Shown piece after piece: positions 30,553-45,121 of a stretch of DNA of 47,140 nucleotides. The DNA is from a virus (Duplodnaviria > Caudoviricetes). The notes beneath the pieces were generated by a model, which saw only the letters and a program-made list of their open reading frames with translations, had not been told where the DNA came from and did no database searches. Numbering within the stretch: the stretch's first letter is position 1; each line of letters starts with the position of its first letter. The stretch covers positions 1 to 47,140 of the IMG/VR virus record IMGVR_UViG_3300043036_000090, one strand, 5' to 3'. The position numbers were made by a program, and so were the translations under genes.

Positions 30553-31194
30553 TTATTTTACTCCTAAGAGGTATTGCTGTTTTACCGTGTAGTAGTCCTT
30601 GCCTTCAATTTTGTTAGTAAAGTTTGAATTTTTTGCAAGAATTACTGTTTGACCTACCTTTGCAAGCACTGGATATTCCTCGCCAACTGGCTTACCAATG
30701 TAACGCAAAATAGCGTAGTCAACAGATGGCTTTTTAGTGATAGATGTTATCAATCCTGAGTCACTCATTACCGCTTCAATCTTCCTGCCACCAACTTCAA
30801 ACGTGTCAAAGTTCTGGTCAACCGTTTGCTCGCAGAGAGTCCAACCTCCAACAGGTAATATGTTACCGTTCCTGACGCTACAAAAAACCCAATAATAAGG
30901 TACTTTATAATAGTTGCCGTAGATACAGTTCGCTTCATCGCTAGTTACTAAATAATGAAAGTATATGATGTCTCCCACCTCAACCTTGTCGTTAATCGTC
31001 TTTCCCTCCTCATCCCACGTTCTTCCGTCTGGTAAGGCAATCACTCTACCGTATATTCTAGCGTGGTGTGTGGGGTTAAATTCAGGGTCTATATGGAGCG
31101 TCATTTCACCAAAGGTAACGGTGTCCTCTAACGACTTTCCAACCTCAACAATGACCGTGTTTGGCGGCGCTTGTTTGATGTCATATTTGAGCAT
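30553..31194 (-). CDS. Tandem GroES-like co-chaperonin
   Basis: Two Cpn10-like units: P..TVIVE..GRVIALP..VEVGDIIYF and PVGGWTL..SGLI..KVGQTVI..KIEGKDYYTVKQQYLLGV. Confidence 0.6.
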   Translation of the reverse strand: MLKYDIKQAPPNTVIVEVGKSLEDTVTFGEMTLHIDPEFNPTHHARIYGRVIALPDGRTWDEEGKTINDKVEVGDIIYFHYLVTSDEANCIYGNYYKVPYYWVFCSVRNGNILPVGGWTLCEQTVDQNFDTFEVGGRKIEAVMSDSGLITSITKKPSVDYAILRYIGKPVGEEYPVLAKVGQTVILAKNSNFTNKIEGKDYYTVKQQYLLGVK

Positions 31195-31253: not shown

Positions 31254-31891
31254 TTTTTATGTAGTGCGTAGTTGTGTTCGGAAGGTTATATATAGTATAC
31301 AACGGGTCAGCAATCAAAGAATGAATCGAAAATCCTAGATGGGGTGGGTCTACTTTCCCAAACCAAATTCCAAAAATTACCCTGTCAATCAGTAATATAT
31401 TACCGACAATTTCCAAACACCCTACCTCCCTACTAGATTGATAGACAACTACTTACCTCATTAGTCCATCAGTTCACTAGGAAAGAAAACATACCCTACA
31501 AGGCAGGATAAAAAATATCTTTTGTAGGTGTACGTGAGGAGATGTCTGCTAGGGGAATTACCCGCCGAACATACCGCCCCCCAAAATGACCCCCCAACAT
31601 CTAAACATATCAATATGATTTTTCCAAGTGTGAAATTGTACAAAACAAAGCGTTCGATTTAAGCCACCATATCTTTGATTTAAGACACTTTGCCCCCTCA
31701 AATGTCCATTCTATCCACCCTAGTAAAGATAATTCATTAGACGCAAAATCGGGGTCTAAAAATGCTCCTATTTAACCGCGCGTACGCGTAATTCAGTATA
31801 TACGCGAGAAGACCTATTGCATTCTTCTTGATAATGTGCAATTTCCTCAAAATCTGTTGTACTATTCTCATATTTTAATCATTTTAAAGGA

Positions 31892-31920
31892 TTTCGTCTA
31901 CACATTTGCCCTATATGTCG
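31892..31920 (+). promoter_or_regulatory. Putative operator/activator site, copy 1
   Basis: TTTCGTCTACACA-N9-TATGTCG, repeated with identical spacing at 35018-35046. Confidence 0.5.
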
Positions 31921-31969
31921 GCACATTCTACCATTTCGTCTCATCGCCTTGTATTATCTAATCTGACCT

Positions 31970-32000
31970 ATTGCACTCTAAAGAAATCCCATTACCTTTG
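31970..32000 (+). promoter_or_regulatory. Rightward early promoter
   Basis: ATTG (31970-31973), 19-bp spacer, TACCTTTG (31993-32000). Predicted transcription start near 32005. Confidence 0.7.
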
Positions 32001-32004
32001 TCTT

Positions 32005-32323
32005 GTTGTCAGGGAAAAATGAGATACTTGATGACTAGGGTTAAAGAATCCTACAATGTTAAGGTCTACCCGAAAGGGTCTTAGCGACAGGTCTAACCCA
32101 CCTTTGGAAACGACAAAAGACACCACGTTATTACGGAAGTAGGCGGTTGGCTCGATTGGGATAGTAATATCCAATGGCATTGGTTTGAAGTTCTAGAAGA
32201 AAGGGTTGCTAAATAAACCCATCGCTGAGTAAACGGCGTCACAAAATCCCCACCCGTGCAAGGGTTATGCACAAGCGTACGATTGGAAAGGTTAACGGCG
32301 GTTCGATTCCGCTACCAATCGCT
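32005..32323 (+). ncRNA. Highly structured leader/ncRNA ending in a tRNA-like T-arm/acceptor domain
   Basis: Back-to-back stems at 32005-32035, 32036-32053, 32057-32086 (GAAA loop), 32131-32142 (GGAA), 32155-32175 (GTAA), 32203-32220, 32223-32238 and 32252-32265. These are followed by CGATTGG..GGCGG-TTCGATT-CCGCT-A-CCAATCG. Confidence 0.65.
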
Positions 32324-32325
32324 AC

Positions 32326-32347
32326 CCTTTTGGTGTAGGTCAACCAA
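32326..32347 (+). promoter_or_regulatory. Early-gene leader hairpin/pseudoknot, copy 1
   Basis: CCT-T-TTGGT-GT-AGG-TCA-ACCAA, 12 nt before ATG 32360. Confidence 0.75.
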
Positions 32348-32359
32348 CTTGAAAAAATT

Positions 32360-32902
32360 ATGTTACAATCAGCAAAAAACCTAGTAAAATTTGTAGAAAA
32401 AGTAAAGCCAAACGAAGACGCAATCATCTCAATGGGCATCAGAAATGATGGCGAAATTGATGCATTCTTCTACCTTCACAAGGGTAATGGTCGTGAGATA
32501 TTTGCTAAGCTAATACATTGCGCAACATTGCAGTTAGTACAGCGCGACACCGACAAGTACATTGACCTAGAGGGTATGTATGAGGGGTATAAGCTACGGG
32601 TTACGTTCTTAAATGAGCGTGACCAAGTTTGGGTTGACCCGAAAGAGGGATATCCTGAGGCGGTAAAGAATTGCGAATATTGGAACTATTTAACTGCTGA
32701 AGAGTGGAAGTCGTTTATGAAGGAGTTCTACTCAATTAACAAGTACGTAGGTCAAGAGGGTACGGGGGCATTCCAAAAGTACCTAAAGGAAAAAGCAGAC
32801 AAAGGTTTCCGCTCAATAATTATGGGAGCATTTATATTTGCCAACACATCTGAAGAGAATGTGTGGTATGAAATATGTGACCGCACTCAACCAATCGTTT
32901 AA
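32360..32902 (+). CDS. Early hypothetical protein (180 aa)
   Basis: First ORF of the rightward arm. Confidence 0.7.
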   Translation: MLQSAKNLVKFVEKVKPNEDAIISMGIRNDGEIDAFFYLHKGNGREIFAKLIHCATLQLVQRDTDKYIDLEGMYEGYKLRVTFLNERDQVWVDPKEGYPEAVKNCEYWNYLTAEEWKSFMKEFYSINKYVGQEGTGAFQKYLKEKADKGFRSIIMGAFIFANTSEENVWYEICDRTQPIV

Positions 32903-32926
32903 CAATTTATCACTAACAACAATTAA

Positions 32927-32950
32927 CCTTGCGGTGTATAGGCAACCGCA
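32927..32950 (+). promoter_or_regulatory. Leader element, copy 2
   Basis: CCT-TGCGGT-GTAT-AGG-CA-ACCGCA, 8 nt before ATG 32959. Confidence 0.8.
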
Positions 32951-32958
32951 TAACTTTT

Positions 32959-33141
32959 ATGAAAACTTTTATCTATTCATTAATCATTTCATTTGTTGTA
33001 TTGTACGTAGGCATTGCATTCGTATCATTCGATATCAACTTCCTAGCAGTAGCGGGAACGGCGGGTCGTTTTGCATTGCTATTCTTCACGCTAATCTTTG
33101 CGGTGCTAGGCACAATATGCATCGAGGAGACTAGAGACTAG
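32959..33141 (+). CDS. Small two-TM membrane protein (60 aa)
   Basis: MKTFIYSLIISFVVLYVGIAF...FALLFFTLIFAVLGTICI. Start re-assigned to the ATG after the leader element. Confidence 0.7.
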   Translation: MKTFIYSLIISFVVLYVGIAFVSFDINFLAVAGTAGRFALLFFTLIFAVLGTICIEETRD

Positions 33142-33190
33142 TGTAACTGACGAGGCTTGATGAGCCGAAACGCCTACGGGCGTCTTACAC
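33141..33190 (+). ncRNA. Hammerhead ribozyme, type I
   Basis: Stem I GTGTAA/TTACAC, core CTGACGA, stem II GGCT/AGCC, GAAA, stem III CGCC-TACG-GGCG. Cleavage triplet GTC with the predicted cut after C33184. Confidence 0.93.
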
Positions 33191-33198
33191 AAACTTAT

Positions 33199-33220
33199 CC
33201 TTTCGGTGTAGGTAACCGAA
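33199..33220 (+). promoter_or_regulatory. Leader element, copy 3
   Basis: CCT-TTCGGT-GT-AGG-TA-ACCGAA, 10 nt before ATG 33231. Confidence 0.78.
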
Positions 33221-33230
33221 ACCAAACATT

Positions 33231-34163
33231 ATGTCAGTATCAAGAAATGCAACACGTCAAATCAATTCATTGTTGAACGCTCAAGGCAACGAGTCAATGT
33301 TCGCACAACGCACCAAGAGTGTAGATGACCTATTAGCTAAGTCATCCCAAGACAACGTATTCGTGACCAACGAAGTTATTCAAATGCAAGAGTTAGTCGG
33401 TATGCCGACACGCAAGGGACTAGAGCAGGGGATTGTATCCAACGGCAAGCTAGTTAATGTGGTATCCAAGTCATACGGACACCTGCCTAACGAGGTATTC
33501 TTTTTAGAGGCTGAGCGCAAGTTGATTGACGCGGACATCTATTACAAGTCACGCTCAATCAATCGTGATGACCGCTCCTTTGCAGTTGATTATGTGCTAG
33601 CAGATGACCGCTACAAAATTGAGGTTAAGGGAGACAAGGATATCCTATTCCCAATGCTACGCTTCACTAACTCGTACGACGGGTCAAACAAGACTAGCGG
33701 TTCATTTGGAATGTATCGCAAGGTATGTGACAATGGCTTATGCATTGCACAAACGCAGATTGGATTCAGCGTAAAACATACGGGTTCAATCGCTGAGATT
33801 GTCTTACCTAAGTTAGACGAATTGGTAGCCAACTTTATGGACAACGAGTTCTTTTCGCTCAAGAAGAAGTTTGACCTACTAGCTGAGGCGCGTGTGTTAA
33901 ATGTAGAGAAGTACGTGCAAGACATCAACAAGAAGTTGAGCCTAATCAAGTACGAGTCATCAGACAAGAATCCTGCACCTAGCTTGAACGCTCGCTTTAT
34001 CCTAGATGTAGTGAACCGCGAGACTAAGCAGTTGAACGTTCGCCCTAACAAGTGGATTGTGTACAACGCTTTCAACGAGTTACTGCACAACAAATTGCAG
34101 AAGACTTTTGACCAACAAAAGACTATCGATGAGCGTTTGTTTGACCTTATCCTTGCATCTTAA
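33231..34163 (+). CDS. DUF932/DUF945-like phage/plasmid protein
   Basis: VVSKSYGHLPN, LRFTNSYDGS, RKVCDNGL, KHTG and WIVYNAFNE motifs. Confidence 0.75.
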   Translation: MSVSRNATRQINSLLNAQGNESMFAQRTKSVDDLLAKSSQDNVFVTNEVIQMQELVGMPTRKGLEQGIVSNGKLVNVVSKSYGHLPNEVFFLEAERKLIDADIYYKSRSINRDDRSFAVDYVLADDRYKIEVKGDKDILFPMLRFTNSYDGSNKTSGSFGMYRKVCDNGLCIAQTQIGFSVKHTGSIAEIVLPKLDELVANFMDNEFFSLKKKFDLLAEARVLNVEKYVQDINKKLSLIKYESSDKNPAPSLNARFILDVVNRETKQLNVRPNKWIVYNAFNELLHNKLQKTFDQQKTIDERLFDLILAS

Positions 34164-36627: not shown

Positions 36628-36807
36628 ATGAAAACCGAAACCTTACAACTAATCACAGGAATTATTCTCGTAGCGGGATTTATATTCCTACAAGTCTCTA
36701 ACAACGAAGCATTAAAGGAGGACGCATTGTGGCTAATTACTATGGCACTACCAACATTCCTTTACGCGTCTCATATTGTCGGAACTAAATGCAATAGAAA
36801 TGAATAG
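36628..36807 (+). CDS. Small two-TM protein (59 aa, not in ORF track)
   Basis: MKTETLQLITGIILVAGFIFLQV...ALWLITMALPTFLYASHIV. Confidence 0.6.
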   Translation: MKTETLQLITGIILVAGFIFLQVSNNEALKEDALWLITMALPTFLYASHIVGTKCNRNE

Positions 36808-45003: not shown

Positions 45004-45011
45004 ATATAGTA

Positions 45012-45076
45012 ATCGAGTTGGTGTAATTGGTAACACGCCCAGAAGGGTAATGCTCGTTCGAATCGGGCACTTGATT
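45012..45076 (+). ncRNA. tRNA-like RNA with truncated anticodon arm
   Basis: Acceptor ATCGAGT/ACTTGAT, TG, D arm GTGT-AATTGGTA-ACAC, G, mini arm CCC-AGAA-GGG, TAAT, T arm GCTCG-TTCGAAT-CGGGC. No encoded CCA. Confidence 0.8.
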
Positions 45077-45121
45077 GAATTTATAGCCGATAGGGTATAT
45101 TAACATTTAAACAAACGAACA

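Follow-up and report, generated by a model that had tools for sequence, protein, structure and literature searches.

The window analyzed here, a 47,140-nucleotide stretch of a virus record, has two arms: the genes for portal, terminase and tail lie on the minus strand, and the plus strand carries small early genes. A segment lying between these two divergent gene arms had been described, in an original prediction made from the sequence alone, as a densely structured RNA at the start of the early transcript. The locus raises the question of whether such a leader RNA exists and, if so, what kind of RNA it is and what it might do at the head of an early operon.

A predicted promoter and a noncoding leader between two gene arms

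The terminase of the window is approximately 32% identical to Flavobacterium phage terminases, and a terminase search returned 117 matching records, mostly from Flavobacterium or Cellulophaga phages, suggesting that the host is probably a Bacteroidota bacterium. The minus-strand arm opens with a 213-aa protein containing a C-terminal GroES (Cpn10) domain (30553-31194), which is kept in all 26 related loci. On the plus strand, a predicted Bacteroidota sigma-A promoter precedes the leader, with a TTG 19 nt upstream of a TAnnTTTG box (Table 1). Since this box is described at -12 to -5 in Flavobacterium promoters (PMC9723704), the first transcribed nucleotide is predicted to be 32005, in agreement with the start of the RNA in the original prediction. 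The TAnnTTTG motif is weak alone, with about 60 copies within the window, and an exact copy stands upstream of 13 of the 22 leaders examined. Ahead of the promoter lie short repeats (31880-31945, plus strand) that are found again in relatives, whether or not these have a leader, and that could be operator or origin sites.

The claim that the segment lacks a credible plus-strand open reading frame was borne out, as none of 60 aa or more is present in the region. The longest plus-strand frame lacks an ATG start, and in the closest relative, L094, a stop codon breaks it; a 62-aa minus-strand frame (31992-32180) is not intact in L094 either.

Table 1. Features of the leader and of the adjoining early operon
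Feature	Position	Strand	Remarks
Predicted Bacteroidota sigma-A promoter	31970..32000	+	TTG 31971-31973; TAnnTTTG box 31993-32000; predicted +1 at 32005
Structured noncoding RNA body	32005..32280	+	276 nt; 45% GC versus 38% for the genome; covariation
5' hairpins P1 (32005-32035) and P2 (32036-32053)	32005..32053	+	Predicted only; homologue-free
P3/P4 helix with GAAA cap (32072-32075)	32058..32085	+	Two-sided changes versus L094: four in P3, one in P4
P5 hairpin with CCC-containing loop	32089..32103	+	Invariant versus L094
P7 hairpin with GGAA cap (GAAA in L094)	32126..32145	+	Two one-sided changes, no breaks
P8 hairpin with GTAA cap	32155..32175	+	One two-sided and one one-sided change versus L094
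Short hairpins H1 and H2	32191..32220	+	Class B equivalent of H2: one two-sided change
H3, 5-bp hairpin with 6-nt A-rich loop	32223..32238	+	100% of cells paired; 4/5 pairs with two-sided changes
H-type pseudoknot, stem 1 32249-32251/32262-32264, stem 2 32256-32260/32268-32272	32249..32272	+	Covariation
tRNA-like element	32281..32324	+	Acceptor stem, 9-nt connector, T-arm, G73 then CTA
First copy of the repeated small pseudoknot	32326..32347	+	8-12 nt ahead of an early start codon
First early ORF, 180 aa	32360..32902	+	Without a match in PHROG or Pfam
Type I hammerhead ribozyme core	33141..33190	+	Sub-threshold Rfam match in the window

Most helices of the body are conserved from 32058 onward

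Folding of the region was no better than that of dinucleotide shuffles, with z-scores of -0.21 on the plus and -1.37 on the minus strand, and in a sliding-window analysis the strongest plus-strand z-score was only -2.4. The original prediction had itself named such an outcome as grounds for its rejection, and the support for the RNA is comparative instead. For eight of the 22 leaders, folding z-scores were -2.5 (L005 and L008), -1.5 (L091), -1.1 (L094), -0.4 (the window) and -0.7 to +0.3 (three leaders of class B, defined below); z-scores of fragments, for which the windows were picked afterwards, were excluded as evidence. The three GNRA loops lie where they had been reported (32072, 32135 and 32164), and three GNRA-capped stems of at least 4 bp compare with 0.23 expected from mononucleotide shuffles (p=0.001). 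At least eight stems had been proposed, and at least 10 helices can be drawn.

We compared the body with that of L094, with which it shares 85% identity over body positions 62-269. This relative was retrieved via a pattern spanning the pseudoknot end only, and its upstream part is therefore an independent comparison. Among 48 modelled pairs, 12 are changed in L094, all 12 still pair and nine are changed on both sides, compared with null means of 11.0 broken and 0.54 two-sided pairs; because some helix registers derive from a consensus fold of the same two sequences, this test is inflated and its null generous. In the three GNRA stems of the original prediction, five of 16 pairs are changed, none is broken, and all three loops still conform to GNRA. 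One-sided changes from U-G to C-G and from A-U to G-U favor the plus strand. The expectation that pairing would be conserved in relatives holds for the majority of helices after this 5' part.

The evidence differs between helices. The P3/P4 helix is retained in L005 and L008 as well, where the stem of P5, judged by eye, differs in its letters and retains its pairing. The loop of P5 could have an alternative partner at 32203-32208, which would displace H2, a hairpin occupying the slot of a boxA-like motif in other leader classes. P7 and P8 are found only in the window and in L094, so that their support comes from this single relative. The first 50 to 55 nt of the RNA (P1 and P2) have no homologue, align to no relative and are replaced even in L094. 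Comparison thus shows structural conservation of the pseudoknot, of the tRNA-like element and of the majority of helices starting at or after 32058.

A covarying hairpin and pseudoknot form the 3' module

The H3 hairpin and the pseudoknot that follows it were analyzed in an alignment of 12 sequences, nine of them distinct, for which seven relatives had been collected via protein and not via an RNA pattern. Pairing was found in 96.6% of cells, and two-sided changes at nine of the 13 pairs; the covariation score was reached by none of 500 shuffles, and slid controls paired at 29-45%. MAFFT placed L001 one column out of register, which was left in and accounts for the four unpaired cells, the pairs themselves being intact. 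Several rows among the leaders are near-copies of one another (L004/L011/L093/L095, L005/L008 and L010/L026).

The original prediction had also contained a pseudoknot, of which stem 2 is real, occurring as six distinct sequences, all Watson-Crick, but stem 1 had been drawn in a shifted register. As 32252-32255/32262-32265, stem 1 shows no two-sided change, 83% of cells paired and five broken cells, whereas the conserved register given in Table 1 pairs in 96% of cells with one two-sided change. The likeness that had been claimed to the repeated leader element, the small pseudoknot recurring downstream, was likewise partly correct. Stem 1 measures 3 bp and stem 2 measures 5 bp in the two pseudoknots alike, and the last loop, of 2-3 nt, ends in A in each. 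The first two loops differ, with 3-4 and 1 nt here compared with 1 and 2-4 nt in most copies of the repeated element.

A model of H3 and the pseudoknot scored the held-out copy in L030 at 50 bits, compared with at most 14 bits for chance pattern matches, and found one copy per record in seven of 24 records. The pseudoknot descriptor gave no off-target match in the 545,552 bases scanned. The pseudoknot ends exactly 2 nt upstream of the predicted RNase P cut in nine of the 10 class A and B leaders and 8 nt upstream of it in the window. In three of 13 carriers (L001, L013 and L030) it lies 75-210 nt inside the leader, and it is therefore not solely an end cap.

A tRNA-like element marks the likely 3' boundary of the leader

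Immediately after the body, and starting 2 nt past the end of the RNA as originally delimited, lies a tRNA-like element that the original prediction had not mentioned. Its acceptor stem (32281-32287/32314-32320) has six of seven pairs, with an A-A mismatch at pair 7, and its T-arm (32297-32313) has a 5-bp stem and a canonical T-loop. The window element ends in CTA, not CCA, and was not called by ARAGORN. Structurally, it matches a signal of the t-element or mascRNA type, in which the acceptor stem stacks on such a T-arm, and RNase P and RNase Z sites are predicted before 32281 and after 32321, respectively. Extensive truncation of tRNA is described as tolerated by bacterial RNase P (PMC4919922).

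An acceptor-plus-T-arm element follows all 22 leaders examined, with acceptor sequences that vary. The acceptor has seven of seven pairs in 13 leaders, six in eight and five in one, as found by a script that required G at position 1 and at least five pairs, with the register in L030 uncertain. All 22 carry C-N-A as the three bases following position 73. An internal copy of the acceptor 5' strand in the window (32153-32159, plus strand) could compete with the local acceptor stem by pairing with 32315-32321 and is not conserved in L094. The connector of the elements in L020, L091 and L094 forms a 3-bp stem with a 7-nt loop and a central TCA triplet (as an anticodon, it would read UGA), and L004 and L010 have the same connector core letters; this TCA connector may be a suppressor-tRNA remnant.

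Small pseudoknots and a hammerhead punctuate the early operon

Downstream of the leader, copies of a small H-type pseudoknot (32326, 32927, 33199, 34185, 34503 and 35815, plus strand) precede early start codons by 8-12 nt. At least six are present, compared with 0.1 expected from shuffles, and relatives carry compensatory stem-2 variants. These counts are lower bounds, as the pattern misses the copy at 32326. The start-codon pseudoknot is a candidate translation-start or 5'-protection element. It occurs in 14 of the 15 leader-bearing loci and in none of the 11 leaderless loci. The first early ORF has 13 homologues besides itself, the named ones of which are called hypothetical. The hammerhead would cut after C33184, 14 nt ahead of a start-codon pseudoknot; it has homologues above the Rfam gathering score in L032, L093 and L095, and matches occur in five of 24 related records. 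A scan for intrinsic terminators in the 15-kb early arm found three on the plus strand, all weak, the first at 36666.

The leader is accessory and is exchanged between phages

We retrieved 26 related loci through the adjacent GroES-like gene, five of which match the RNA region by nhmmer. A leader is present in 15 of these loci and absent in 11. In the leaderless relatives L108, L109 and L111, an ORF begins directly after the promoter. L007, in which an apparent minihelix proved to be a distant false positive, is counted as leaderless, while the tree statistics still label it as a leader. Leaders are mosaics of shared modules, 202-495 nt in length. Class A (the window, L094, L091, L005 and L008) measures 246-281 nt, and class B (L004, L011, L093, L095 and L020) about 400-420 nt, with only the 3' domain in common with class A.

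On the tree of the GroES-like protein, the presence of a leader is patchy, and near-identical neighbors differ, L015 and L016 in presence and L005 and L006 in class. This accessory, exchanged distribution would be in keeping with a host-interaction locus.

The pseudoknot pattern gave six viral matches (five true, one chance), 12 metagenome matches (four true, eight chance) and four genome matches (all chance), and four metagenome contigs were added in this way. A second pseudoknot pattern gave three matches, two already known and one by chance, and an upstream-repeat pattern gave 20, among them one new leader (L110). A longer motif taken from other leader classes had eight viral matches, all inside this phage group. 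In blastn searches, the RNA had no match among cultured phages, and the leader of one relative had none among plasmids.

The RNA appears distinct from known structured RNAs

An Rfam scan gave no match to the RNA at the gathering score, and none of the nine matches at E<=10 in 31700-33300 overlaps 32005-32324. No RNase P or group I/II hallmarks had been seen originally, and accordingly Rfam 15 models for these gave no match within 32005-32324; no SRP RNA, 6S RNA, known riboswitch or ribozyme match overlaps the same interval. RNase P RNA fragments, pistol, twister and HDV-like ribozymes, a preQ1 riboswitch and group I/II introns were dropped as candidates for want of an Rfam match. The RNA is also not tmRNA, as had been stated from its termini. 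The two acceptor strands are found together in the last 40 nt at the 3' end, ARAGORN was negative, the single candidate plus frame for a tag is broken by a stop in L094, and an Rfam match in one relative is limited to an 18-nt piece of T-arm. Because a leader is missing from 11 of the 26 related loci, a packaging RNA was rejected. No paper describing the element emerged from the literature search. A catalogue of 8,495 IMG/VR candidates has been published by Fremin et al. in 2023 (PMC10690425); the contig numbers of the relatives were not found in those of its tables that were searched, and part of the RNA could be listed in its alignment and coordinate archives. Covariation and the absence of an Rfam match both back the prediction of a structured plus-strand RNA. 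This phage noncoding RNA is real and is conserved among relatives, and apparently no description of it exists.

Several known systems resemble the locus in part. MALAT1 and MENbeta owe their 3' ends to RNase P cleavage at a neighboring tRNA-like structure, which RNase Z cuts as well (PMC4919922). The arrangement here, a noncoding RNA with an adjoining tRNA-like structure at its 3' end, is similar to MALAT1/mascRNA and MENbeta/menRNA, but those RNAs are mammalian and nuclear and their processing has been demonstrated, whereas here it is predicted, for a 276-nt phage leader with an operon downstream; we claim no homology. Plant mitochondrial t-elements are noncanonical tRNA-like elements that mark the 5' and 3' ends of mRNAs for RNase Z and RNase P (PMC1920247). 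The element of the leader would likewise be a noncanonical processing mark, but one set in a phage early operon, beside hammerheads and after a conserved structured RNA. GOLLD and ROOL, which are phage-encoded structured RNAs described as of unknown function, are often near tRNA genes, measure about 660 to more than 800 nt and form cages, and GOLLD has a conserved 3' region and a variable 5' region (bioRxiv 10.1101/2024.12.08.627333). The leader is also a structured phage RNA, and conserved at its 3' end and variable at its 5' end as GOLLD is, but with 276 nt compared with the more than 600 nt required, and with no covariance-model match in Rfam, it does not belong to either family; ten related loci likewise gave no GOLLD or ROOL match at E<=0.5. 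The T4 RNAs rnaC and rnaD are linked to the T4 tRNA cluster. They are stable phage noncoding RNAs of about 138 and 118 nt, classed as late RNAs and described as of unknown function (PMC9697503, PMC12685909), and, compared by description only, they are alike in kind.

Leaders with antitermination activity are a further point of comparison. HK022 put consists of two hairpins right behind the promoter. Like put, lambda nut and the boxA leaders of rrn operons, the RNA described here is a structured RNA opening an operon, in this case an early one; in relatives, a short hairpin with an A-rich loop comes after a boxA-like motif. As differences, conservation is lowest in the promoter-proximal part here, a boxA-like motif is missing from the window, and a search for an N-like protein identified none. 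A put-like antiterminator had been suggested originally, and finds little direct support, because the promoter-proximal 50 nt are the least conserved and no plus-strand intrinsic terminator was found before 36666; no conserved hairpin pair of the put kind stands directly after the promoter, this part being replaced even in L094.

Release of the leader as a stable RNA is the favored reading

We hypothesize that the RNA at 32005-32280 is cut free by host RNase P and binds a host protein at an early stage of infection, serving as a stable decoy or scaffold. To this reading we assign a probability of about 0.45. Host sigma-A polymerase would very likely start transcription at 32005. RNase P would then probably cleave before G32281, with RNase Z or exonucleases trimming after G32321. 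Given these predicted sites and the precedents above, the predicted products are an RNA of about 276 nt, a mini-tRNA of about 44 nt and a first mRNA opening with a small start-codon pseudoknot; an RNA cut on the 3' side only would measure about 320 nt. The 3' pseudoknot would block 3'-to-5' decay, allowing the RNA to accumulate, and, in the least supported step, the released RNA might titrate a host RNA-binding or defense protein. The fixed spacing of pseudoknot and cut, the size of the body and the selection upon it, its position as the first part transcribed and its accessory, exchanged distribution all fit a decoy. The folding z-score of -0.21 counts against it, as do three features of the window itself, namely, a pseudoknot that ends 8 nt before the cut, the A-A mismatch in the acceptor stem and the CTA end.

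The boxA-like motif in other leader classes points to a role in cis, which also counts against a decoy. The leader could be a cis antitermination element whose nascent RNA loads host Nus factors (boxA type, as in rRNA operons) or binds polymerase (put type), so that an early arm of at least 15 kb is read through Rho-dependent sites while the tRNA-like element merely trims a spent leader. Outside classes A and B, 11 of the 12 leaders carry a boxA-like 9-mer, a putative Bacteroidota boxA, whereas none of the 10 leaders inside does. The H3-pseudoknot module occurs in all 10 leaders of these classes and in three of the 12 others, so that 21 of the 22 leaders have the module or the motif; where both occur, the module lies 46-63 nt after the motif, and H2 aligns with the slot of the motif. 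Binding of NusB-uS10 to boxA is described as driving antitermination in rrn operons and lambda (PMC10931766), which provides a precedent. However, the window has no boxA-like motif, the 9-mer is a putative boxA for which the literature search found no confirming paper, and classes A and B may represent just one or two independent origins, so that the complementary distribution is weak evidence. The few weak intrinsic terminators in the arm and the 11 leaderless loci also argue against antitermination. We regard antitermination as the main rival of the decoy reading, though clearly less probable than it, and the boxA/Nus variant as a serious rival for the leader family; decoy and antitermination models are not mutually exclusive.

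An explanation that we judge less probable still is that the leader is passive, shielding an untranslated 5' end from Rho and nucleases and presenting the tRNA-like element, with no task once released. The co-occurrence of leader, tRNA-like elements and start-codon pseudoknots (14 of 15 compared with 0 of 11 loci) and the interchangeable content of leaders between phages are consistent with this; yet a spacer would not need 200-500 nt, three retained GNRA loops or long invariant single-stranded stretches, the leaderless L108, L109 and L111 have their ORF straight after the promoter, and the co-occurrence may merely reflect swapping of the whole early region. It is very improbable that the pseudoknot forms a second tRNA mimic after the cut, taking the role of an acceptor arm in the manner of plant-virus tRNA-like structures, its AC end being extended to ACCA. 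Its 3-bp and 5-bp stems agree with the pseudoknot portion of the 4/3/5 arrangement described for valine-accepting structures (PMC7749636), and nine of 10 class A and B RNAs would end in the pseudoknot plus AC. Valine-accepting structures also have an anticodon arm and a T-arm that stacks on the 3' pseudoknot, with 12 bp separating T-loop and CCA. Here, neither a T-loop nor an anticodon arm adjoins the pseudoknot, as H3 has a 6-nt A-rich loop and lies 10 nt away, and the pseudoknot is followed by 8 nt in the window and is internal in three relatives. Chance hairpins in a GC-richer intergenic stretch would agree with the folding z-score and the lack of an Rfam match, but covariation, the score of the held-out copy and the clean descriptor scan refute this explanation for 32058-32324, leaving it a negligible probability; P1 and P2 lie outside that refutation.

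A broader form of the decoy reading joins several parts and is, taken jointly, doubtful. According to it, the early program of these phages would be built on RNA components. The leader would be a modular, exchangeable first noncoding RNA that a tRNA mimic releases and a pseudoknot caps, and so the counterpart in phages to MALAT1/mascRNA; it would neutralize a host defense or transcription factor ahead of any phage protein, while minihelices and hammerheads would cut the operon into mRNAs, each with a 5' pseudoknot replacing the missing Shine-Dalgarno sequence. If release as a decoy is correct, the leader would add a family of phage noncoding RNAs for which both the ends and the biogenesis route are predicted, and whose size allows direct testing. 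Hammerheads and tRNA mimics would share one setting, the cutting of a phage early operon, and the start-codon pseudoknot would be a candidate structured translation-start element for a phylum described as lacking Shine-Dalgarno pairing (PMC9723704). If antitermination is correct instead, a Bacteroidota phage would have an RNA-based antiterminator, and the leaders would supply boxA-plus and boxA-minus forms of it as a natural series.

Additional structured elements in the window and its relatives

The 3' half of the leader in L003, L010, L026 and L110 contains a different module with two apparently crossing helices and, judged by eye, compensatory changes in the stems; it has no Rfam match in L104 or L113. 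On the minus strand of L020 (95-2665), at least five tRNA-like elements are present in 2.6 kb together with no start-codon pseudoknots, and a different small hairpin follows some of them. In the window, a second degenerate tRNA, which ARAGORN does not call, comprises an acceptor, a D-arm, a stub of an anticodon arm and a T-arm (45008-45080, plus strand) and begins at the predicted +1 of another TAnnTTTG box (44996).
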